Shown here in pieces: positions 14,910-33,949 of a stretch of 64,000 bases of DNA. The notes below the pieces were generated by a model. The model saw nothing but the letters and a program-made list of their open reading frames with translations, made no database searches and had not been told where the DNA came from. The position numbers and the translations under genes are program-made. The DNA is from Candidatus Parcubacteria bacterium (GTDB taxonomy: Bacteria > Patescibacteriota > Minisyncoccia > Phycocordibacterales > UBA918): contig JAKFXN010000003.1 of assembly GCA_021731405.1 (NCBI GenBank), positions 44,676 to 108,675 on the forward strand, read 5' to 3'. How positions within the stretch are numbered: position 1 is the first letter of the stretch; each line of letters opens with the position of its first letter.

Positions 14910-15212
14910 ATGAAAAGAAATAGCTACAGCATGACTGAGCAGGTATATCTCTATCCGGGAGAATCTGCCAATTGGCATTTTGTACCAATCACAAAAAAGA
15001 TTGGACAGGAAATAAGAACTACCTACGGCAAGTCAGCGCGTGGTTTTGGAGCGGTAAAGGTAGAGGTGACTATTGGTGGCACGGTATGGCAGACCTCCAT
15101 GTTTCCCGACAAGTATTCAGGGAGTTACATCCTTCCAATCAAAGCAGCGGTACGGAAAAAAGAAGAGATTGAGGCAGGAGAAAAGATTACCTACACTATA
15201 AAACTCATTTAG
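14910..15212 (+). CDS. DUF1905 domain protein
   Basis: ANWHFVPI...RGFGAVKVEVTIGGTVWQTSMFPDKYSGSYILPIKAAVRKK matches the DUF1905 pattern. Confidence 0.55.
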   Translation: MKRNSYSMTEQVYLYPGESANWHFVPITKKIGQEIRTTYGKSARGFGAVKVEVTIGGTVWQTSMFPDKYSGSYILPIKAAVRKKEEIEAGEKITYTIKLI

Positions 15213-17272
15213 ACTTTCTTTGGTAGTTTTGCCGCTACGTGTGAAGCTATAAAGATAATAACCGAGAAAATAATAAATCTAGTATCGATAGCATCAGCAG
15301 TGATGCCATTTTTTATAAACTCCTCGACACTGATCGCTGCGCCAATCGCGACAAAGGTGGCTATACCAAGAAGCGTGCCAACAATTGTCGCTAGGATGAA
15401 GGGAGTAAAAGGGACCCGTACTAGACCCGCGCCATAGTTAACGACATCATACGGAAAAAATGTGAGCCGCATCGTGAGTATGGCCATAAAAGGATTCTTT
15501 TGAAGGAGCTCAATTGAACCCTTCAAGAGTCCAGTGTTTTTGGTGTTTGTACTGAAAAATCTTCCAACCGTGTATGCTAAAGTAGCCGAAAAATTCGCTC
15601 CAATAATGGTGTAGAGAATTCCCCATAAGCCAAAGAAAACACCGGAGAGGATAGTGAGAGCTGTGCCTGGAAAAAAAGTTAGTGGGCGAATTGTGTACGC
15701 GAGAATGTATAAGAGCGGCCCCCAAGCAGTACTCGTGATAAAAGTGAACAGGCTAAGGGCTATTTCACTAAAAGAAAGTCCGCTTACTACTTTTACTTGA
15801 TACAGCCACAAGAGCGCACCTATCCAGATACTAGCGGCACATATTTTTGGAGCTGCTTTCTTACCAAGATTTAAAAGGTCTTCTTTAAGCGAAGCAATTT
15901 GGGTAGCCAGAAAATAATCACCCGCTTTTTTGAGAATGAGTGAATAGGTAGGGTAGGCAAAAATAGTTGAGCGAAGACGATAGAGTGAAATGTTATTTTC
16001 CATCGCGAGCGTGAGGGTGCTTATGAGCTCACCTGCTCGCGGGCCGACAATGTGCGCCCCGAGGATTGTGCCGGATAGTCGCTTAGCAATAATGATTAAA
16101 AGACCAGACGTATCGTCATCAGTTCGAGCACGGTCATTAGCAGCAAAGGAAACTTCAATCCGACGCACTGATTTTTCGCTGTACTGCTCTTGTGCCTCCT
16201 CCCATGACAGTCCTACCTGCGCGATTTCTGGCTCGGTGTAGGTGACTTTAGGGATAGCCTTCTCTTTTACAGAAATGAGTCCCTTGCTGGCAATGTGGGT
16301 AACTACTTGTCTGCCGATATCGTCTGCGACGTGGGTGAACTTCATACGGGCCGAAACGTCTCCAAGAGCATAGATGTCTTTGTTGGTTGTTCGCCAGTTT
16401 CCATCAATCGTGATGCCGAAGGGAGTTGTCTTAACGCCTACGGTATCTAGGCCGCGAGGAATATTTGCTACGCGTCCGACAGCAATAAGTACTTTATCAA
16501 AAGTGACCACCTCAGTTTTTAGTACCGCGCCAGTTTCATTTTTTAGTTCAATCAGAGCATTTTGGCCGGTTACTTTTTTTACCTCAGCATTATTGAGAAT
16601 AGTTATGCCAATATCCAGGAATATTTTTGTAATGATTGAGCTCACTGCTTCATCTTCGAGTTTTGCAAAGCGAGAGTGATTATTGATGAGAGTTACTTGA
16701 CTACCAAGCAGGGCGAGCGCTTGCCCCATTTCCATTCCAATCGGTCCAGCGCCAATAATGAGCGTGCGAGCAGGAATCTCAGTTTGTGAAAATAAATTTT
16801 GGTTAGTGAGAATACGGTCGGTATGTAATCCTTCAATAGGTAGCTGGCGAGGGCTTGAGCCTGTGGCAATAATGGCCTTTTTAAAGTGATAGGTCGTTTC
16901 CCCAACCCGAATCACGCGCTTTCCTGTAAAAACAGCCTCTCCCATCACGACTGTGATACCGAGCTTGGCAAAATGGTCTGCCGTTTCATCAGCTAAGATT
17001 TCTTGTATCTTGGTCGCAACGTACGAAAAAGCTTTTTGGCGGTACTGTTCATTTTTTTCAGTGAGACCTGAGATTTTTGCCGCAAGGGCGTATTGTTTGG
17101 CATGATGAAGGAGAGCTTTACTTGGGATACATCCCGAGTTTGTACATTCTCCGCCGATATGTTCTCTTTCTACCAAAAGTACTTTCTTTCCCACTTTGGT
17201 GAGACCAACTGCTGTAGTGAGTCCACCTGAGCCTGCTCCGATGACGACCGCATCAAATGTATGTGCTTGCAT
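15209..17272 (-). CDS. fusion protein: class-I pyridine nucleotide-disulfide oxidoreductase (dihydrolipoamide dehydrogenase/mercuric reductase-like) + C-terminal DedA/TVP38 membrane domain
   Basis: N-term GAGSGG FAD motif and redox-active GGECTNSGCIPSK disulfide, second GAGPIGME NAD motif, dimerisation region; last ~220 aa are a DedA-type TM domain. Confidence 0.75.
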   Translation of the reverse strand: MQAHTFDAVVIGAGSGGLTTAVGLTKVGKKVLLVEREHIGGECTNSGCIPSKALLHHAKQYALAAKISGLTEKNEQYRQKAFSYVATKIQEILADETADHFAKLGITVVMGEAVFTGKRVIRVGETTYHFKKAIIATGSSPRQLPIEGLHTDRILTNQNLFSQTEIPARTLIIGAGPIGMEMGQALALLGSQVTLINNHSRFAKLEDEAVSSIITKIFLDIGITILNNAEVKKVTGQNALIELKNETGAVLKTEVVTFDKVLIAVGRVANIPRGLDTVGVKTTPFGITIDGNWRTTNKDIYALGDVSARMKFTHVADDIGRQVVTHIASKGLISVKEKAIPKVTYTEPEIAQVGLSWEEAQEQYSEKSVRRIEVSFAANDRARTDDDTSGLLIIIAKRLSGTILGAHIVGPRAGELISTLTLAMENNISLYRLRSTIFAYPTYSLILKKAGDYFLATQIASLKEDLLNLGKKAAPKICAASIWIGALLWLYQVKVVSGLSFSEIALSLFTFITSTAWGPLLYILAYTIRPLTFFPGTALTILSGVFFGLWGILYTIIGANFSATLAYTVGRFFSTNTKNTGLLKGSIELLQKNPFMAILTMRLTFFPYDVVNYGAGLVRVPFTPFILATIVGTLLGIATFVAIGAAISVEEFIKNGITADAIDTRFIIFSVIIFIASHVAAKLPKKV

Positions 17273-17522: not shown

Positions 17523-19700
17523 ATGGCACGAGAATTTCCAGTAGATCGCATGCGAAACTTCGGTATCGTAGCGCACGTAGATGCGGGTAAAACCACGACT
17601 TCAGAGCGGGTACTTTTCTATACTGGCATGAGTCACAAGATTGGTGAGGTGCACGATGGTGCTACTGTCACTGACTGGATGGAACAGGAACGAGAACGAG
17701 GTATTACTATTACAGCGGCGGCTATTTCATGTAACTGGTCTAAGACTGACGTACTTGATCGAAAGGACAAGTCACAGATGTACAGCTTCAACATTATCGA
17801 CACTCCAGGCCACATCGACTTTACCGCTGAAGTAAAGCGTTCAATGCGTGTGCTCGACGGTGCTGTCGTGGTATTTGACTCGGTAGCGGGTGTAGAACCA
17901 CAATCAGAAACTAACTGGGGTTATGCTGACGAAGCTGGTGTGCCACGTATTTGTTTCATCAACAAGATGGACCGACTCGGCGCTTCTTTTGAAAAATCAT
18001 ACCAGTCAATTCTCGACCGTCTTTCTAAGAAAGCAGTTCGAATCCAACTTCCATGGGGTGCTGAAGACCAATTCCAAGGAGTGGTTGACCTGCTTCGCAT
18101 GAAGGCTTTCGTCTTTGAAGGTGAAATGGGTACTCTTGTTAAACAAGTAGAGATTCCAGAAGAGCTCAAGGCAGATGCTGAAAAGTATCGAGCAGAGCTC
18201 ATTGAACGGGTGGTTGAACATGATGATACTCTCATGGAAGCCTACCTCTCTGGAACTCTCCCAACCGACGAACAACTAAAAACCACTCTCCGAAAGGCAG
18301 TGCTTGCAAACCAACTCTTCCCAGTTATGACTGGATCTGCGCTTAAGAACATTGGTGTACAGCTTGTGCTCGATGGTGTAGTTGATTACCTGCCAGCACC
18401 AACAGACCTTCCACCAATTAAGGGTATCAACCCTAAAGATGAAACTGACATCACTCGTCTTCCAGACGACAATCAGCCATTTTGTGCGCTTGCCTTCAAA
18501 CTTCAGACTGACCCATTTGTGGGACAACTTACCTTCTTCCGCGTGTACTCAGGAGTAGTTAAGGCTGGTAGTTACATCTACAACTCAACTACTGGAGAAA
18601 AGGAACGATTAGGCCGTATTGTACGACTCCAAGCAGACAAGCGAACAGAAATTGAAGAAGTGTACGCTGGAGAAATTGCTGCCGGAGTAGGGCTCAAAGA
18701 AGTAAAGACTTCACACACACTTTGTGATGAAGCAAACCCAATTATCCTCGAACAAATTAAATTCCCAGAGCCAGTGGTGGCGCTACGCGTAGAACCAAAG
18801 ACTAAGGGTGACCAAGAACGTATGGGTGTTGCTTTGAAGAAGCTATCTGATGAAGATCCAACTTTCAAGGTTTCAACTGACGAAGAGACTATGGAAACAA
18901 TTATCGCTGGTATGGGAGAACTTCACTTGGAAATTCTCGTCGACCGAATGAAGCGTGAGTTTAACGTAGAAGCTAACGTTGGTGCTCCACAAGTAGCGTA
19001 CCGAGAAACAATTCAACGAGAAGCTGAAGCTGAATACAAGTACGTAAAGCAGTCAGGAGGTCGTGGACAGTATGGTCACGTGAAGATTCGTATCCGTCCA
19101 ATGAAGCCGCTAGAACTTGCTGAAGGAAAGTCACTTGCTAAGAACATTACCCGTGAAGACCATTACGAATTCATCAACAGTATCAAGGGAGGAGTAATTC
19201 CAGGAGAATTTATTCCAGCTGTTATGAAGGGATGTAAAGAAGCAATGGCACGAGGATTTGTGGCTGGATACAAGATGGAAGACGTTTCAGTAGAGCTTTT
19301 TGACGGTTCATTCCATGATGTTGACTCTTCAGAAATTGCTTTCAAACTCGCTGCTATCTATGCGTTTAAGGAAGCTGCAGCTAAGGCTGGAGCGGTTCTC
19401 CTTGAACCAGTGATGAAGGTTGAAGTTCGTACTCCAGAACAATTCATGGGTGACGTAAACGGAAACATTTCAAGTAAACGAGGACAAGTAGAGGGTATGG
19501 ATGATATCGGAGATAAGAAGGTGATTACTGCTAAGGTTCCACTTTCAGAAATGTTTGGTTACACCAACATGCTCCGTTCTATGACTCAAGGTCGTGCTTC
19601 AATGATGATGGAATTCCATCATTATGACGTGGTTCCGCCAAACGTTGCTAATGAGATCAAGAAGACGAGAGGTGTGAAGGATGTGAATGAAGAAGCGTAG
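17523..19700 (+). CDS. fusA: elongation factor G (725 aa)
   Basis: [16 protein letters not shown]-domain, full five-domain EF-G length. Confidence 0.95.
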
Positions 19701-19720
19701 TTTTCTACCTTCTCTGATCC

Positions 19721-19753
19721 AAAAAGCCCAGCACGTACGTGCTGGGCTTTTTG
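19721..19753 (+). terminator. terminator after fusA
   Basis: aaaaagcccagcacgtacgtgctgggctttttg. Confidence 0.85.
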
Positions 19754-19860
19754 TATGTATTTTCTTTGAAATTAATATTTTCTGTGGTATAAAACGGTGG
19801 GCAATTCGTTGTCCAAAACAGGTCTAAGTTCTTTCAATCATATACTACCGAGGAGTTTTC

Positions 19861-20355
19861 GTGAAAAACGAAGATAACAAATTTTCGGCCCTGTGCCCGT
19901 GCGATATGGGTGCTTCGTGGACAGGGTTCAACTGGGCAAAGTACCCAGGGGGTGTTCAAGTGAGCTTTGCTCTGACCGACGGCAGGCGACTGCTGCTGGT
20001 CAAGCCGACTCGCTGGAACTATGTGATGATGCAGCTGCCTCTGGAGAAGACAGGCAGCCTCGATGGGGTTCTGGCAAAGATGTACACCGAGCTGCGAAAG
20101 GTCGGCATCGCGGTGTCTGGTGTCGGCAAACCAACCGTTCAGCAGGTGCTCGAAAAGACCGGTATTTTCAATGTTTTGGTGGTGGTGCCGTATGCCCAAG
20201 TCTCGGGATCGGCTGCTTCGATGGAATGTGTCGATTCGGCACTGATGTTGCGCGGCTTTTGGGTCTCGAACCCCATGGCCACGTTTGTGCCGCGGCTGCT
20301 CGGTTGGGGTGACGCACACGAGATGCCTGAAGAACAGGTTCTGCAGGCGGCCTAA
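19861..20355 (+). CDS. GC-rich orphan ORF (164 aa, GTG start) of unknown function, compositionally foreign
   Basis: GC ~55-60% vs ~35-44% flanks; strong GC3 bias in this frame; AGGAG 6 nt upstream of GTG; two terminators downstream. Confidence 0.55.
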   Translation: MKNEDNKFSALCPCDMGASWTGFNWAKYPGGVQVSFALTDGRRLLLVKPTRWNYVMMQLPLEKTGSLDGVLAKMYTELRKVGIAVSGVGKPTVQQVLEKTGIFNVLVVVPYAQVSGSAASMECVDSALMLRGFWVSNPMATFVPRLLGWGDAHEMPEEQVLQAA

Positions 20356-20380
20356 TTCCCTGAAGGGGAAATAGCCGAAT

Positions 20381-20466
20381 AAAGCGCATGGACAAAGTCC
20401 GTGCGCTTTTTAATTTGCTTGCATAAACCAAAAAAGCCCGTGAACGCCAGTTCACGGGCTTTTGCT
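20381..20466 (+). terminator. tandem terminators after GC-rich ORF
   Basis: gcgcatggac-aaa-gtccgtgcgcttttt and agcccgtgaac-gcca-gttcacgggcttttg. Confidence 0.75.
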
Positions 20467-20710
20467 TATCAAAGTACTATTTTAAGCCTTCTTTTAACTT
20501 CTTGTTTGAACTTGCAAAAGTTTTCGACTCTGGTACTATTGCCGAACCGCACACAGATTATGTCTGTGCGTGGAGCGAACATAGTATTGCTCTTTCACAC
20601 GTTTCGAGTGTTCATTCTCAGCGCGATTGTTCTCGCCGCTTAGAATGTACGCTCGGACATAGCTTTTTAGTAGCTGTGTGCGGATTATTAAAATAGTATC
20701 TTTCATTAAT

Positions 20711-21904
20711 ATGGCAGAAACATTTGATCGTTCAAAGCCGCACATTAACGTAGGAACCATTGGTCACGTTGACCATGGTAAGACCACGCTTACAGCTGCG
20801 ATTCTTACAGTACTTAACCAAAGAGGTGGTGGTTATAGTGCTACAACAAAGGGCGTTGACGAAATCGACAAGGCCCCAGAAGAAAAAGCACGAGGTATTA
20901 CTATTTCTCTCTCACACTCTGAGTACGAAACTCCAACTCGACACTACGCACACATCGATGCGCCAGGTCACGCGGACTACATTAAGAACATGATTACTGG
21001 TGCTGCACAGATGGACGGTGCTGTACTCGTGGTTGCTGCTACAGACGGTGCGATGCCACAAACACGTGAGCACGTTCTTCTTGCTAAGCAAGTTGGTGTA
21101 CCTAACATCATTGTTTTCCTTAACAAGTGCGACATGGTCGACGATGAGGAAATGATTATGCTCGTGGAAGAGGAACTTCGAGAACTTCTTACTAAGAACG
21201 GCTTTGACGGTGCTAACGCTCCAGTCATCAAGGGTTCTGGTCTACAAGCGCTTGAAAATCCAACTTCAGAATGGGGAGACAAGATTATTGAGCTTGCAAA
21301 CGCAATGGACTCATACTTCCCAACACCAGTTCGAGATCTCGACAAGCCTTTCCTTATGCCAATTGAAGACATTTTCTCAATTGAAGGACGCGGTACTGTA
21401 GTTACAGGTCGTGTAGAACGAGGTGCTGTTAAGGTTGGAGAAGATGTTGAAATCGTTGGTATCAAGGATACTGCGGTGACTACTGTTACAGGAGTTGAAA
21501 TGTTCAACAAGCAACTCGACCGAGCACAAGCTGGAGACAACGCCGGTATTCTACTGCGAGGTACTAAGAAGGAAGACGTACACCGAGGACAGGTTCTTGC
21601 TAAGAAGGGTTCAGTAACTCCACACACAGAATTTGAAGCTGAAGTATACGTACTTTCAAAAGATGAAGGAGGTCGTCACACACCATTCTTCTCTGGTTAC
21701 AAGCCACAGTTCTATATTCGAACAACTGACGTTACCGGAGACGTAACACTCTCTGAAGGAGTTGAAATGATTATGCCAGGTGATACAGCAACCTTTAAGG
21801 TAAAGCTTGTAGCTCCAGTTGCACTTGAAGATCAACAAAACTTTGCGATTCGCGAAGGAGGTAAGACAGTTGGTGCGGGTGTTGTAACAAAGATTGTTGC
21901 CTAA
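20711..21904 (+). CDS. tuf: elongation factor Tu
   Basis: [27 protein letters not shown]; ORF track start 20678 is upstream of the conserved N-terminus. Confidence 0.95.
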
Positions 21905-21934: not shown

Positions 21935-22312
21935 ATGGCCACAGATACTACAAAAAAAGAGACCAAAGCCAAAGAAGCAAAAGCTCCAAAGGCTGCTTCA
22001 GGCGAAATTAATAAACTTCGTATTCGCGTCCGTGCTTACGAGCACAAGATTCTTGATGCGAGTATCAAGCAAATTATTGACACTGCACTTCGCTTTGACG
22101 CGAAGGTAGTTGGTCCGATCCCACTTCCGACTGAAATCAAAAAGTATACAGTCAATCGTTCGACGTTCGTTTATAAAGATGCGCGAGAACAATTCGAGAT
22201 GCGAATGCATAAGCGAGTAGTTGATATTCTTAACCCAGGACCAAAGGTAGTAGAGGCTCTAACGAACCTCTCGCTCCCGTCTGGAGTAAATATTGATGTA
22301 AAGATGATGTAG
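21935..22312 (+). CDS. rpsJ: 30S ribosomal protein S10 with ~23-aa Lys-rich N-terminal extension
   Basis: KLRIRVRAYEHKILD...GPIPLPT...VNRSTFVYKDAREQFEMRMHKR. Confidence 0.9.
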   Translation: MATDTTKKETKAKEAKAPKAASGEINKLRIRVRAYEHKILDASIKQIIDTALRFDAKVVGPIPLPTEIKKYTVNRSTFVYKDAREQFEMRMHKRVVDILNPGPKVVEALTNLSLPSGVNIDVKMM

Positions 22313-22326
22313 TATCATCCGCCATT

Positions 22327-22364
22327 AAAACAAAAACCCACTCATTTGAGTGGGTTTTTGTTTT
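22327..22364. terminator. bidirectional terminator after rpsJ
   Basis: aaaacaaaaacccactca-tttg-agtgggtttttgtttt perfect mirror hairpin. Confidence 0.85.
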
Positions 22365-22752
22365 AACCAGGAGAACGTCGCCTATTTTTTGCGATAAACT
22401 CGTATATTTTCTCGCCTAAAATGTTTATTCCGGGCAGGTAGAGAAGTAGTGCAAACGGGGCAGTAAGTGGTAGCTTTAATCCAATTTTTCTGACTGCCTT
22501 AAAACCCCTATAAACAGTACCGTTTCTATCAATAAGATGAATTTCAGAAAGCAGGGAGTTTAGGTTTGAGATTTCTGCTGGGATTTGAGAAAGGGATTTT
22601 TCGTCGTAAACGTTAACTGTTTTAATAACCCCAAACCAGTCTAGTGAAACAATAATATTTCTAGCTCGACCACAGGAGAGACATAGTCCATCATAAAGTA
22701 CGTATGAGTAGGGCATCAACCTCATCATAGCTCTCAAGTACACTGTAGGCAA
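22363..22752 (-). CDS. DCC1-like thiol-disulfide oxidoreductase (DUF393) family protein
   Basis: YVLYDGLCLSCGR = VLFDGxCxLC signature of DUF393/DCC. Confidence 0.65.
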   Translation of the reverse strand: MPTVYLRAMMRLMPYSYVLYDGLCLSCGRARNIIVSLDWFGVIKTVNVYDEKSLSQIPAEISNLNSLLSEIHLIDRNGTVYRGFKAVRKIGLKLPLTAPFALLLYLPGINILGEKIYEFIAKNRRRSPG

Positions 22753-22761
22753 TTCATAAAA

Positions 22762-23571
22762 TTGAGTATTTCTGTCCTGTACAATATACGTACTATGAGC
22801 GATGAGTCGATTGTCACCCCAACAAAAAAATCAAAATTTCTGAAACTGGCACTGCTTGTCATCAGTTTGTTCTGGGTGATTGTTATAGTAGCGTTCCTTT
22901 TTCCTCAGACTCAATATCGAGCCGGAAACATTTTTTTTGGAGAAGTGCCAGCTCTCTATAATCTGACAATCGCTCAGGTACTTTTTACCCATGCTTCTTA
23001 TCCAATTATAGGGGCAGCGCCACAGTTTGCCCACTATCAATTATCTCGTACCTACTTTATTAAAGGAGAATTGTACACTTCATTATTTGAGGCAAAAAAA
23101 GAATTAGAGCTGTACCCGCAAAATAAAAGGACCTATTACATTTTAGGTTTAACGTACGGGTACCTCGGTCAGGAAGAAGAAGCAATTGAGGCTTTTTCAA
23201 GTTTTATCGAGGCTTATCCAGAATCATGGGCGGCTCGCAACGACAAGGCTTGGTTACAGTTTAGGATTGGTGATATAGAAGGGGCGCTTCTGACCATGGC
23301 ACCGGTGACACACCTAGAAAATCCCTGGGTATTAAATACCTACGGAACGCTCCTTCTTAATTCAGATAGGTTACTTGAGGCGAAAGAGGTTTTTTTACAT
23401 GCTGAAGCCGTTGTCCAAAAAATTACCGCTGATGACTGGGGGAGCGCCTATCCTGGTAACGATCCACGGATCTATGAAACAGGTTTAACGGGAATGCGGA
23501 CTTCAATTGAAGAAAATCTACAGATTGTTGAAGACCGCTTATTATCCCCAAACAAGGAGAGCTCAGAGTAG
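22762..23571 (+). CDS. membrane-anchored TPR-repeat protein
   Basis: N-terminal TM helix, TPR-like LGLTYGYLGQEEEAIEAF repeats. Confidence 0.45.
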   Translation: MSISVLYNIRTMSDESIVTPTKKSKFLKLALLVISLFWVIVIVAFLFPQTQYRAGNIFFGEVPALYNLTIAQVLFTHASYPIIGAAPQFAHYQLSRTYFIKGELYTSLFEAKKELELYPQNKRTYYILGLTYGYLGQEEEAIEAFSSFIEAYPESWAARNDKAWLQFRIGDIEGALLTMAPVTHLENPWVLNTYGTLLLNSDRLLEAKEVFLHAEAVVQKITADDWGSAYPGNDPRIYETGLTGMRTSIEENLQIVEDRLLSPNKESSE

Positions 23572-23633
23572 GCCTCTGCTGACGCGTGGTATTATTGAGT
23601 TAGATTATTTTAATTCTTTTTATCATTTTATCT

Positions 23634-24971
23634 ATGAATAACTCATTTTTCCTACAAAAAGTACTTGAGTCATCTCTCCCTCGGCTACTTCTGGCCCTAT
23701 TTCTTCTCCCTGTCGTCCTGATAGCTTTATTTTTTGTTACCGCTGAACAAAATCCACATGCAGCAGAGCTTGCTTTTGCTGAACGCTCGATTGATAAAGA
23801 CATTATCGGCTCTGTGGTCCCGGCCAGCTGTGAAAGTGCTCCGCCGACTAACCATTTTGCAGGAGATTGTGCTGTTCCGCCCACTCCCTCTACGATTACT
23901 GTAGCTTGTGGGGTCCCGGTTAGTCCAGCTGGTCCAAAGACAATTAGTTGGCCAGCTTCAGCACGTGCATCATACTATATGGTTCGTCTTGATTATGTTG
24001 GCGACCCAGCTCCGTACCTAGTACAAAATGATAATTATGGAGCTACTTCATTTACCTTTACCCCTACTCTTGATACCAACTACACAACGTGGGTGCATGC
24101 TTGTAACGTCAGTGGATGTTCAGCTCACCAAGCGGTTAATTTTAATTGCCCATCTCCAGTTGTGGTAGGCATAAGTGCCTCACCATCTCAAGTTGATGCT
24201 GGAAATTCAACTACTATCAACTGGAACGTTACTGGCGCAACGAGCTGCACGGCTTCTGGTGGATGGTTGGGCGCGAAGACGGCTGGATCTGATTCAGAAA
24301 ACTTTAATCCAACCGCTAATACTACCTACACTCTGACCTGTACTGGCCCTGGAGGGACAGTCTCAAATTCCGCTACAGTCCTTGTTCCTTCTGGATATAT
24401 AACTGGCACAAATTGTACGATTCCAACCGGAGCATCTAGTTGTGATGTAAATATTATTTGGCAGTCATACAACTTCTTTTCTACGAGCGAAGTTTTGCAA
24501 GGCGATATCCAGTTTAGCTCCGACACTGTAAATGCTGGAACAGTACGCTCAATTAACCCAAATGACGCAGTCTTCACACTACGGGATAGTGGTGGGTCTT
24601 TTGTCACTACCTACAGCGCCTCGGTAAGTTGTGCTGCTAACAGTGTCTGGACCGGAGTGGGAGGTAGTTGCGTGCCATTACCTGAAATCGATATCACTGC
24701 TGATCCAAACGTGATTCGCAGTGGTGCAACTGCTCCGCTTGAGATTGAGATTGACGCTGGTTATGAGCTTACTTGTACTCTAAACGACGGTGGTGCTTCA
24801 CAAGTGTTTACTCACGATGGTACCCCTTCATCACAGACTTACAGCCGAACAACTCGTCCGCTCAACTCAGCCCAGGTAGTAAGTGTCAGCTGTGTTTCGC
24901 CAACGTATCCAGCAGTTAACGGCGACGCTGATGTACGGGTAAACGTCGTACCAACCATCCAAGAGATCTAA
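23634..24971 (+). CDS. secreted Cys-rich protein with tandem Ig-like beta-sandwich repeats
   Basis: Signal/TM anchor; repeated pattern W..C..SGGW.G......TTYTLTC.GPGG typical of extracellular Ig-like/PKD-like modules. Confidence 0.5.
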   Translation: MNNSFFLQKVLESSLPRLLLALFLLPVVLIALFFVTAEQNPHAAELAFAERSIDKDIIGSVVPASCESAPPTNHFAGDCAVPPTPSTITVACGVPVSPAGPKTISWPASARASYYMVRLDYVGDPAPYLVQNDNYGATSFTFTPTLDTNYTTWVHACNVSGCSAHQAVNFNCPSPVVVGISASPSQVDAGNSTTINWNVTGATSCTASGGWLGAKTAGSDSENFNPTANTTYTLTCTGPGGTVSNSATVLVPSGYITGTNCTIPTGASSCDVNIIWQSYNFFSTSEVLQGDIQFSSDTVNAGTVRSINPNDAVFTLRDSGGSFVTTYSASVSCAANSVWTGVGGSCVPLPEIDITADPNVIRSGATAPLEIEIDAGYELTCTLNDGGASQVFTHDGTPSSQTYSRTTRPLNSAQVVSVSCVSPTYPAVNGDADVRVNVVPTIQEI

Positions 24972-24985
24972 TTCTCATTGAGAAC

Positions 24986-25020
24986 CAAGCAAAAAGCCGC
25001 CTAAAGCGGCTTTTTGCTTG
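24986..25020 (+). terminator. terminator
   Basis: aaaaagccgc-ctaa-agcggcttttt. Confidence 0.8.
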
Positions 25021-25030
25021 GTTTAAATAC

Positions 25031-25058
25031 TTGCCAAACCCTGAAAAATCAGTATACT
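25031..25058 (+). promoter_or_regulatory. sigma70-like promoter for rplC operon
   Basis: TTGCCA-16nt-TATACT; followed by ~280-nt structured leader. Confidence 0.55.
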
Positions 25059-25341
25059 AACCCCAGTTTCTAAAGACCTACGTACAGCTGGTGTAAGCCA
25101 GCTAGACCAATGGGCACAAACCGCGCATCTATGCTTGGACCTTGTGTTCGCGTATATATGCGCGGTTTGTTGTATCGGTCCTCTTAGAACAAGGCTAAAT
25201 TTTGCAGCTGGCAAATTCCTTTGTCAAAACAGCAGATTTTTCCTCACTGTACTCTTGTACAGCTCAGTCAAAATCTTTGTTTTTCCTCGGACTTTTCTCA
25301 GCTTCAGTATTTAGCTAAATTATAAGTATAGTTCACACGTA

Positions 25342-25962
25342 ATGAAATTCATTATTGGAACCAAAGCTGGAATGACACAAGTTTTCGATGAAAACGGTGT
25401 CTGTACAGCAGCCACCATTCTCAAGGTGTCTACAGCCAAAGTTTCACAAGTAAAAAACGTTGAAACTGATGGATATGTTGCGGTACAAATCGCTACCGGT
25501 GAACAAAAAGAGCACCGAGTGGCAAAAGCTCAAAAAGGACATTTCGGCACAGGCGTACGCTTTGTGAAGGAGTTCCGTCCGAAGGTGGGAGATGAAGCAA
25601 CTCTAGATAGTATGGTAAAAGATACTACTTTTGACGCTTCAGTCTTTACTCCAGGAGATTTGATTGCTGTCTCAGCAATCTCAAAAGGTAAGGGCTTCCA
25701 AGGTGTAGTTAAGCGTCACGGCTTTGCTGGAGGACGTCGTACTCACGGACAGAAGCACTCTGAACGAGAACCAGGATCTATTGGAGCAACTGGTCTCAAT
25801 CGAGTTATGAAGGGTCAGCGTATGGCTGGTCGAATGGGATCTGATGCGATTACTATTAAGAACCTCCGTGTTCTTCAGGTAAATCCAACAGAGAACGTTC
25901 TTCTTGTTTCAGGCGCAATTCCAGGTCGGAAAGGAACATTAGTAGAGGTACGTGGTACCTAA
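25342..25962 (+). CDS. rplC: 50S ribosomal protein L3
   Basis: MKFIIGTKAGMTQVF..., 206 aa. Confidence 0.95.
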   Translation: MKFIIGTKAGMTQVFDENGVCTAATILKVSTAKVSQVKNVETDGYVAVQIATGEQKEHRVAKAQKGHFGTGVRFVKEFRPKVGDEATLDSMVKDTTFDASVFTPGDLIAVSAISKGKGFQGVVKRHGFAGGRRTHGQKHSEREPGSIGATGLNRVMKGQRMAGRMGSDAITIKNLRVLQVNPTENVLLVSGAIPGRKGTLVEVRGT

Positions 25963-33466: not shown

Positions 33467-33949
33467 ATGAAGCGTCAATCTGCATGCAAAGGACTCTTTG
33501 CATCTCTCGCCATCTCGTTCCTGTGCCTCATCGGCACGTCCGCTTTCGCGCAGGAATCTGGTGTCAAGGCCGTTTCGACCAACAGCGATCCCATGGCACA
33601 AGTGGTGCTGACGGAAGCCGAGGTCCGCGCCCTCGTCACCGACAAGTCGGTCACTTGGGAAGCTGGCCAGTGGGGCCTCTGCCGGAATGACTTCAAGGCT
33701 GACGGTACGTTCACTTTCGAGTGCAACGGCAGCAACAACAAGTACTACGACACCGGCAAGTGGTACTTCAAGGACCACGAGTCCGAGCCTCGTCGCATGA
33801 TCTGTCGTGACTACGACAAGCAGAAAAAGGGGAGTTGTATGTCCATGGCCAGAAGTGAGGCTGGGGAGACCTTCTACTTCTTTGGGTTGTCCAAGAAAAA
33901 ACAAAATAAGGTCACTCGCGTCACCGAACTCGTGCAGGTTCCCATGTGA
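33467..33949 (+). CDS. GC-rich orphan ORF encoding secreted Cys-containing protein (160 aa)
   Basis: GC ~58%; signal peptide MKRQSACKGLFASLAISFLCLIGTSAFA|QE; AGGAG 6 nt before ATG; perfect terminator 33967-33995. Confidence 0.55.
   Translation: MKRQSACKGLFASLAISFLCLIGTSAFAQESGVKAVSTNSDPMAQVVLTEAEVRALVTDKSVTWEAGQWGLCRNDFKADGTFTFECNGSNNKYYDTGKWYFKDHESEPRRMICRDYDKQKKGSCMSMARSEAGETFYFFGLSKKKQNKVTRVTELVQVPM

Follow-up and report, generated by a model that had tools for sequence, protein, structure and literature searches.

The window, a 64,000-nucleotide (nt) stretch of contig JAKFXN010000003.1 (assembly GCA_021731405.1) analysed here as a whole, carries between the translation-factor genes fusA and tuf an open reading frame (ORF) of 164 amino acids (aa) that is markedly richer in GC than the DNA around it. 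Comparison with related loci marks this ORF as a resident, fast-evolving protein gene of Candidatus Saccharibacteria, situated in a slot with conserved ends and a hypervariable coding body. Its product is predicted to adopt a Nudix-like fold without the Nudix catalytic motif and would act by binding and not by hydrolysis. We give the overall explanation, which is set out in full below, a probability of roughly 0.55; the parts read directly from the comparison of loci are held with high confidence, and the functional part is tentative.

A resident gene between fusA and tuf

The ORF, whose product begins MKNEDNKFSALCPC, and the signals and genes that frame it are as follows (L numbers denote the loci compared).

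17523 to 19700, plus strand: fusA (EF-G, 725 aa), the left flank; from the ORF listing, with Pfam EF-G domains on the L001 orthologue
19717 to 19756, plus strand: fusA intrinsic terminator, a bidirectional-looking hairpin with a T run; scan hit at 19720-19753 and inverted repeat I1 with 20-nt arms
19766 to 19793, plus strand: putative ORF promoter, TTGAAA, 16-nt spacer, TGG-TATAAA (extended -10); from conservation
19799 to 19860, plus strand: ORF 5' untranslated region, with a reduced H2 hairpin GGCAA-TTCG-TTGTC (19800-19814) and a GAGGAG Shine-Dalgarno (SD) sequence (19850-19855)
19861 to 20355, plus strand: slot gene of family A, GTG start, 164 aa, predicted Nudix fold without a Nudix box, C-terminus ...EEQVLQAA
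20356 to 20370, plus strand: post-stop hairpin TTCCC-TGAA-GGGGAA; recurs at this position in loci of subfamilies A and B, where compensatory changes preserve it
20381 to 20409, plus strand: terminator T1 of the ORF unit; from the scan, with compensatory changes in L017, L001 and L011
20432 to 20463, no strand assigned: terminator hairpin T2, bidirectional-looking and lineage-specific; from the scan, inverted repeat I2 with 14-nt perfect arms
20711 to 21904, plus strand: tuf (EF-Tu, 397 aa), the right flank; ATG at 20711 without an SD sequence

The terminator scan returned three sites, compared with 1.4±1.1 in shuffled sequences, and these bear out the initial annotation, made from the sequence of the window alone, which had placed a fusA terminator upstream of the ORF and two terminators downstream (19720-19753, 20381-20409 and 20432-20463). 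T2 could not be aligned in L017 or L004, and the post-stop hairpin is found also in L017, L001, L034, L035, L038 and L039. The ORF promoter, which lies below the consensus threshold of the promoter scan, was inferred from conservation: the block TTTGAA...TGGTATAAA is invariant in five aligned loci and is present upstream of the slot ORFs of all subfamilies. Read from these signals, the ORF is a self-contained transcription unit, separate from fusA and tuf.

Both the reading frame and its start are conserved. The frame is open in six of six orthologous DNAs, all of which keep the GTG start, and the variable columns of the alignment of these six distribute over codon positions one, two and three as 77/62/113. 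The ratio of nonsynonymous to synonymous divergence (dN/dS, Nei-Gojobori) is 0.17-0.46 for the ORF, compared with 0.02-0.05 for fusA and tuf. Since the frame is open in every orthologue, third positions are the most variable and dN/dS stays below 0.5, the ORF is, on this comparative evidence, a genuine protein gene under selection. The GTG-started ORF of 164 aa that had been described at the outset is thus found at 19861 to 20355, with GAGGAG as its SD sequence. The deposited protein (P0001) has only 149 aa, with its start at an internal ATG at 19906 instead of the GTG at 19861. This deposited start codon is probably wrong and the 164-aa form supported, because the 15 codons upstream of the annotated ATG (NKFSxLCPC), the GTG and the SD sequence are all conserved.

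An initial word-index search retrieved six related proteins at 60-100% identity, none of them named or carrying a Pfam domain. Exhaustive profile hidden Markov model (HMM) searching of 1.84 billion representative proteins yielded 18 proteins at E<1e-10, all of 115-194 aa, and three weaker, repeat-rich matches resembling noise. In P0023, a distant member, the protein forms an N-terminal fusion with EF-Tu, once again beside tuf. As far as these searches reach, the family is small and uncharacterised, with about 20 relatives, all in Saccharibacteria. Pfam, NCBIfam, PADLOC and PHROGs were all negative for the ORF product, in line with the first impression that the protein resembled nothing recognisable.

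Homologues of the ORF occupy the same position in other genomes. At least 13 independent assemblies have the gene in the fusA-tuf interval; the loci with a family-A gene there are L001-L011, L017, L022, L023, L025, L029, L030, L032, L034, L035 and L041, and the homologues at this position are 25-77% identical to the window ORF product. L017, from a Candidatus Saccharibacteria metagenome-assembled genome, shows the order fusA, ORF, tuf as in the window, with aa identities of 97% for fusA, 98% for tuf and 65% for the ORF (the window fusA is 94-97% identical to its L001 and L017 orthologues). For the same pair, ORF, fusA and tuf show a synonymous divergence dS of 0.71, 0.81 and 0.40 and a divergence at four-fold sites of 0.30, 0.42 and 0.29, respectively. 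Across comparisons, four-fold sites have diverged by 0.30-0.44 in the ORF and by 0.29-0.43 in its flanks. Because dS matches that of fusA and tuf while dN/dS is higher, the gene is resident and fast-evolving: judged by these distances it has diverged together with its neighbours, and faster only at the protein level. An assembly chimera is unlikely, since the arrangement recurs in independent assemblies.

These comparisons indicate that the ORF is vertically inherited in Candidatus Saccharibacteria and is neither a recent nor an engineered insertion. The initial annotation had favoured recent horizontal acquisition or engineering, a reading it would have given up if homologues marked the ORF as a normal resident gene of its lineage. 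That is what the homologues do, by their position at the same site, a dS like that of fusA and tuf, and a GC excess at third codon positions (GC3) common to the whole family. What stands of the alien, self-contained cassette it described is the outlying composition and the gene's own promoter, SD sequence and terminator. Calls of foreign DNA based on GC content would mislabel this resident gene.

Other origins were considered as well. No flanking direct repeats or mobility genes were found around the ORF and no tRNA was found in the window, and insertion of a mobile element was set aside. A phage origin was rejected after tblastn against 50,697 phage records, which gave no homologue of the ORF.

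A variable slot with conserved ends

An exact 21-nt match to the P3 hairpin of the tuf leader (described below) brought in a further 16 loci, and the contents of the fusA-tuf gap vary among the loci compared. The slot is empty in L028 and L033, where the gap measures 388 nt. It holds other same-strand, GC-rich ORFs of 155-196 aa in L027, L036, L038, L039 and L040, and unrelated low-GC ORFs in L037 and L042. Such alternative counterparts, like the ORF itself, find no match in Pfam, NCBIfam, PADLOC or PHROGs. In L031, a pair resembling a CopG/RHH-like antitoxin and a RelE/ParE-like toxin (238-742; translations judged by eye) lies upstream of the tuf leader, where other loci have the Nudix-like gene.

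The comparison of L038 with L013 is the clearest. The two are 97.1% identical over 204 nt through GTGAAC, that is, the start codon and one further codon, and 96.0% identical over 278 nt from GAGAAGGTTCTCCAGGCGGCCTAA on, through the terminator and the tuf leader. GAGAAGGTTCTCCAGGCGGCCTAA comprises the last seven codons (EKVLQAA) and the stop. Between these flanks, the bodies of 456 and 462 nt are unalignable. The body in L038 is a member of family B, small and separate, for which no homology to family A was detectable (hhalign probability 2.4%); the A7 profile gave no PDB match. As read from this pair, unrelated bodies are expressed from the same slot with the same tail. The early suspicion of foreign content therefore survives at the level of the locus, where unrelated bodies sit between near-identical flanks in L013 and L038 and the content is thus swapped or replaced among relatives, but not for the window copy as a recent arrival. 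Across the loci compared, the slot ends (promoter, leader, start context, ..AA tail, post-stop hairpin and terminator) are conserved and the coding body is hypervariable.

The slot leader is common to the genes of all subfamilies. In relatives, a hairpin of variable sequence, H1, precedes the conserved, terminator-like H2 (CGGGCAAT..ATTGCCCG), which a U tract follows; this two-hairpin form lies at 2715-2760 in L017, 675-745 in L038 and 712-760 in L025. In L017, H2 with its U tract scores as an intrinsic terminator. This architecture suggests attenuation control in the relatives. The leaders of the window and L011 are reduced, having kept H2 and lost H1 and the U tract.

The shared C-terminal tail is also conserved. 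Ala-Ala ends 15 of 21 family members, in forms such as ..LQAA, ..RLAA and ..AEAA, versus 2 of 73 window ORFs (Ala frequency 0.083). The two terminal Ala codons vary synonymously between loci, which argues for constraint at the protein level. Residues 160-164 have a predicted local distance difference test score (pLDDT) below 50 in the model described below, consistent with disorder, and the tail thus has the ssrA-like form ..(L/x)AA-COOH on a low-confidence end. In the ssrA degron, the core that ClpXP/ClpAP recognise is a terminal ..LAA-COOH. The slot tails resemble ssrA degrons, which are added by transfer-messenger RNA (tmRNA), in the terminal Ala-Ala, often after L, Q, E or M, and in the low-confidence tail; unlike them, they are genetically encoded and not tmRNA-added, and the -3 residue varies. 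By this analogy, proteolytic instability is probably the most economical reading of the tail. A motif scan of the window for Clp, FtsH and Nudix returned none.

Hypervariable or idiomorphic loci between conserved flanks are familiar from agr specificity groups and from capsule and O-antigen loci. The slot is like them in its sharp borders, 96-97% identical flanks, unalignable centres, allelic families and empty sites. It is unlike them in that one ORF of about 0.5 kb makes up the whole unit and that all alleles carry a GC excess. Its breakpoints also fall within the reading frame, behind codon 2 and ahead of the last seven codons, so that unrelated bodies acquire a common translation start and a common C-terminal tail. 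The natural competence of Saccharibacteria, which take up DNA into the genome via homology arms of about 1 kb (PMC10633639), makes exchange by recombination through fusA, tuf and the slot ends plausible.

A second orphan family of small proteins accompanies the slot gene in several relatives. Its genes are GC-rich and divergent from the slot gene, with one or two of them between fusA and the ORF:

L022, 5263-5706, minus strand: divergent partner gene
L025, 66-566, minus strand: divergent partner gene
L023, 2057-2919, minus strand: two divergent partner genes
L029, 1493-2035, minus strand: divergent partner gene
L027, 3146-4010, minus strand: divergent partner gene

The family shows the motifs WW[LI]VP.. 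and [IV]SI[IV]xG and finds no match in Pfam, NCBIfam, PADLOC or PHROGs. It is absent from the window, where the spacer between fusA and the ORF is 160 nt.

These partners raise the question of whether the ORF belongs to a conflict module, as its labile antidote or immunity component, with the divergent small gene as its counterpart and the window ORF as an orphan antidote. Homologous minus-strand partners do stand beside the ORF in L022, L023, L025, L027, L029 and L030 (m147 vs m166, blastp E 4e-9), the Ala-Ala tail would fit a protease-labile antitoxin, hypervariability and allele replacement are typical of immunity genes, and the pair in L031 shows a RelE/ParE-type toxin-antitoxin (TA) system at this very site. 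Yet partner and ORF are divergent and not co-transcribed. The partner is also missing from L011, L017, L032 and L034/L035 as well as from the window, and the ORF is still under purifying selection; neither protein matches any of the four databases. The adjacent partner of a type II TA system is lacking in the window, its candidate is divergent in relatives, and PADLOC gave no match. We regard the antidote reading as unlikely, although it fares better than the other alternatives.

Composition, predicted fold and a proposed role

The GC content of the ORF is 0.568 and its GC3 0.673. In the 73 non-overlapping ORFs of the window, which served as the reference, mean GC is 0.447 (sd 0.039) and mean GC3 0.412 (sd 0.081), and the z score of the ORF is about 3 for GC and GC3 alike. 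Sliding-window GC reaches 0.55-0.58 within the ORF versus 0.40-0.46 around it, and only one further window ORF, at 33467-33949, is comparably GC-rich. The gene was thus rightly singled out as a compositional outlier.

The excess is not peculiar to the window copy. High GC3 is common to all family members, at 0.54-0.84 versus 0.34-0.50 for fusA and tuf on the same contigs, and members at 25-30% identity, with saturated synonymous sites, are still GC-rich. Among polarised third-position singletons in family A, 18 changes from strong to weak base pairs (S>W) stand against 14 in the opposite direction (W>S); relaxation to a fusA-like GC3 would predict about 3:1 (rough binomial p ~0.01, n=32), and the corresponding counts in fusA are 47:54. 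Because the saturated members stay GC-rich and the two directions balance, the GC excess looks maintained and not residual. Its cause may be GC-biased gene conversion, at a site prone to recombination, or selection acting on the mRNA.

The same data bear on an ancient transfer from a high-GC donor, for example the actinobacteria on which these epibionts live, into the clade's ancestor, in which incomplete amelioration would have left the GC content as a scar. The gap in GC3 between family and flanks is what such a history would leave, and a tblastn search seeded by the pattern ASWTGFDW retrieved Streptomyces LanB genes (PF04738, Lant_dehydr_N), with an hhalign probability of 86% on a shallow alignment. 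With the deeper, 21-sequence profile, this probability drops to 36%, and the exhaustive search returned neither LanB nor any other protein from outside the slot; an origin from LanB was therefore rejected. The persistent GC richness of saturated members and the near balance of S>W and W>S changes likewise speak against a scar, and we consider an ancient transfer improbable.

The fold of the product was predicted with AlphaFold. A model from a 6-sequence alignment was poor (pLDDT 50.7) and is superseded by that from the 21-sequence alignment, which reached a pLDDT of 86.9 and a predicted template modelling (pTM) score of 0.82, with low confidence at residues 1-7 and 160-164. Foldseek against the PDB placed this model among Nudix proteins: the best 50 matches, with E-values from 7e-5 to 1e-3 and a probability of mostly 1.0, all come from the Nudix family, including ADP-ribose pyrophosphatase, GDP-mannose hydrolase, NudC, NUDT12, MutT2 and RppH, with the Nudix-like domain of MutY (9bs2_A) at rank 39. 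In the viral structure library BFVD, most named fold matches are Nudix as well (best E ~1e-4, probability 1.0). Model and matches together describe the alpha/beta/alpha sandwich of the Nudix fold, at template modelling (TM) scores of 0.35-0.5.

Sequence-based searches give a different picture. None of the 21 members matches PF00293 (NUDIX) even at E<=10, hhalign against MutT gave a probability of 0.4%, and the best PDB profile match, the MutT/Nudix protein 3id9, has an E of 1.5 in the expected register. The Nudix box GX5EX7REUXEEXGU is absent from the protein: the helix at 67-80 reads LDGVLAKMYTELRKVG, and the family conserves only L and G there and no RExxEE. A regular-expression search for the box over the window returned nothing. 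A literature search found nothing relevant on Nudix or on fusA-tuf in Saccharibacteria. The product is thus predicted to have a Nudix fold, and we do not file it as a Nudix hydrolase. Since the fold is predicted and both the box and an HMM match are missing, we infer a non-catalytic, binding role and not one in hydrolysis.

Nudix-fold domains without catalysis are known, among them the MutY C-terminal domain, the NrtR effector domain, TRPM2 NUDT9-H and the Nudix-like domain of DBC1. The ORF product is like these in its predicted alpha/beta/alpha sandwich, the lack of a functional Nudix box and the binding role to be expected. It differs from them as a stand-alone protein of 164 aa that is extended at the N-terminus by W/F/W-YPGG and ends in an Ala-Ala tail. 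Sequence searches detect no relationship to these domains, and its family is confined to one locus and one phylum.

Alternatively, the ORF could encode an active, highly divergent Nudix hydrolase with a translation-linked housekeeping function, in nucleotide sanitation or RNA 5'-end processing. The fold matches are all Nudix enzymes, and canonical hydrolases such as ADP-ribose pyrophosphatase, GDP-mannose hydrolase, NudC and RppH are the best structural matches; the position beside translation factors is conserved. The product is nevertheless unlike these enzymes in having neither the box nor a PF00293 match, and in a structural similarity that goes with only 10-20% identity. Nudix-box residues are unconserved in the family alignment, the gene is dispensable, with slots empty or replaced in relatives, and its dN/dS is 10-fold above that of its neighbours. 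We consider a housekeeping hydrolase quite improbable.

Two further readings fare worse. The view that a foreign or engineered cassette entered this genome recently, splitting a co-transcribed fusA-tuf pair, could appeal to a composition about 3 sd off the window mean, to the unit's own terminators and to its orphan protein. It is largely refuted by same-site orthologues in many relatives with a dS equal to that of fusA and tuf, by the family-wide GC excess, by the lack of repeats, mobility genes, tRNA and phage matches, and by the finding that even with an empty slot, as in L028 and L033, tuf has a conserved promoter and leader to itself. Published engineered cassettes in Saccharibacteria also differ in content and site, carrying hph or reporter genes at another location (PMC10633639). 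That the GC-rich stretch is a structured RNA or a chance ORF has next to no credibility: GC-rich islands of AT-rich genomes are often RNAs and the antisense frame is open in the window (161-165 codons) and in L001, but only the plus-strand frame is open in all orthologues, the antisense frame is interrupted by stops in four of six, codon-position variability, dN/dS and the conserved SD sequence and GTG point to a protein, the family alignment gives a confident AlphaFold fold, and an Rfam search found no match.

The explanation that we prefer can be put as follows. The ORF occupies a dedicated slot, transcribed independently from its own promoter and leader, with the fusA terminator on one side and the promoter and leader of tuf on the other. 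Its product would bind a ligand without catalysis, as a sensor, decoy or adaptor of pseudo-Nudix type, and would not be a hydrolase. Its abundance could be kept low or adjustable by an attenuator-like leader, in the form seen in relatives, and an exposed ssrA-like Ala-Ala C-terminus, if read by an AAA+ protease, would make the protein short-lived. Homologous recombination, running through the slot ends and the ultra-conserved genes on either side, fusA and tuf, would exchange the bodies. The protein would belong to a rotating set encoded in the slot, whose hypervariability would reflect selection, diversifying or balancing, in a conflict involving host or phage. The GC3 excess would not be a residue of recent transfer but would be upheld, either by selection or through GC-biased gene conversion at a hot spot of recombination. 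A bolder generalisation takes the fusA-tuf gap of Saccharibacteria for an 'expression slot', in which a fixed promoter, attenuator-like leader, start context, degron-like tail and terminator serve unrelated GC-rich bodies of small proteins, pseudo-Nudix and others, swapped by recombination through the ultra-conserved genes of the two translation factors; this we consider rather doubtful.

Several observations weigh against the preferred explanation. The fold match is moderate (TM 0.35-0.5, identity 10-20%) and covers family A, and a non-canonical active site may exist. The -AA tail is missing in subfamilies D and E and in a few family-A sequences, and the window contains no Clp, Lon or tmRNA gene to support a degron. 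The case for swapping depends on a single clean pair; for the window, the comparison turned up no near-identical genome that carries a different allele. The test of substitution direction has only 32 sites, and GC-biased conversion is a hypothesis only.

Saccharibacteria and other members of the candidate phyla radiation have genomes of about 1 Mb with many unannotated genes, and live as obligate epibionts by means whose molecular basis is largely obscure. If the 'expression slot' reading holds, the slot would be an undescribed way for such ultra-small epibionts to keep a rotating set of short-lived proteins for conflict or host interaction, paired with two undescribed structured RNA leaders, one of the slot and one of tuf-rpsJ. 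The locus offers a phylum-restricted family with a confidently predicted Nudix fold and no catalytic motif, at a site beside the cell's most conserved genes that appears to be used for rapid turnover of small proteins with shared ends and a degron-like tail. Its stable, high GC3 is a compositional anomaly beyond neutral amelioration. Both conserved, structured 5' leaders, including the one in front of tuf-rpsJ, are absent from Rfam.

The tuf leader and other features of the window

Downstream of the slot, tuf is preceded by its own promoter and a long structured leader:

20512 to 20539, plus strand: putative tuf promoter, TTGCAA, 16-nt spacer, TGG-TACTAT (extended -10); from conservation
20546 to 20710, plus strand: structured tuf 5' leader, about 140-165 nt, core 20547-20683
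20552-20558 with 20562-20568, plus strand: leader helix P2
20572-20592, plus strand: leader hairpin P3, invariant
20547-20556 with 20674-20683, plus strand: closing or alternative long-range helix of 10-15 bp

The promoter block CTTGCAAA...CTCTGGTACTATTGCCG is invariant in all loci, including the distant L022 and L025. The leader, which further holds a long P4 hairpin and P5, is nearly invariant even where the slot ORF is only 25-30% identical, and lies at 3480-3650 in L017, 6700-6868 in L022 and 1400-1526 in L025; sampling of the 16 further loci was seeded on the P3 match, and the invariance of P3 is thus by construction. The hairpin that the initial annotation had quoted (~20548-20570) does exist, but it is only one helix, P2, of a much larger structure.

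Several lines of evidence point to a conserved RNA fold. The minimum free energy (MFE) of the leader is -61.4 kcal/mol (z -5.3 vs shuffles). In 17 distinct sequences, a five-helix junction has 94.9% of its cells paired, compared with 21-56% when the partners are slid. Double changes occur in eight pairs, mostly in P4 and one each in P2 and P5, and the covariation score was reached in 0 of 500 shuffles. A competing fold with the long-range helix is 92.8% paired and is the MFE structure in many relatives. A 2-nt indel in P4 excludes a conserved reading frame in the leader. Rfam 15 gave no match to the leader at the gathering threshold or at E<=10 in the window and six loci, only terminator-like noise, and no Rfam family reached its gathering score in the window. 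We propose the leader as a candidate for a new cis-regulatory or stabilising element of tuf-rpsJ. Like the leaders of ribosomal-protein and translation-factor genes in Rfam (S10/L4, L20), it is conserved, covarying and multi-helix, with its own promoter and two folds. Unlike them, it has no Rfam 15 match and no evident terminator or SD-sequestering helix, and tuf lacks an SD sequence.

The S10 operon of the window is split (21935-25962): rpsJ follows directly after tuf, apart from rplC (25342) and rplD (25977), and the interval between rpsJ and rplC holds a DCC1-like oxidoreductase gene (22363-22752, minus strand), a TPR protein gene (22762-23571) and an unassigned ORF of 445 aa (23634-24971). 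On the other side, fusA is detached from rpsL/rpsG, with a divergent Pyr_redox/VTT fusion gene upstream at 15209-17272.

The second compositional outlier of the window, at 33467-33949 on the plus strand, is an ORF of 160 aa with a GC of 0.551, a GC3 of 0.727 and a signal-peptide-like N-terminus. It gives a weak match to DUF995 (E 7e-4), lies among low-GC membrane and glycosyltransferase-like genes, and is a better candidate for foreign origin than the ORF between fusA and tuf.

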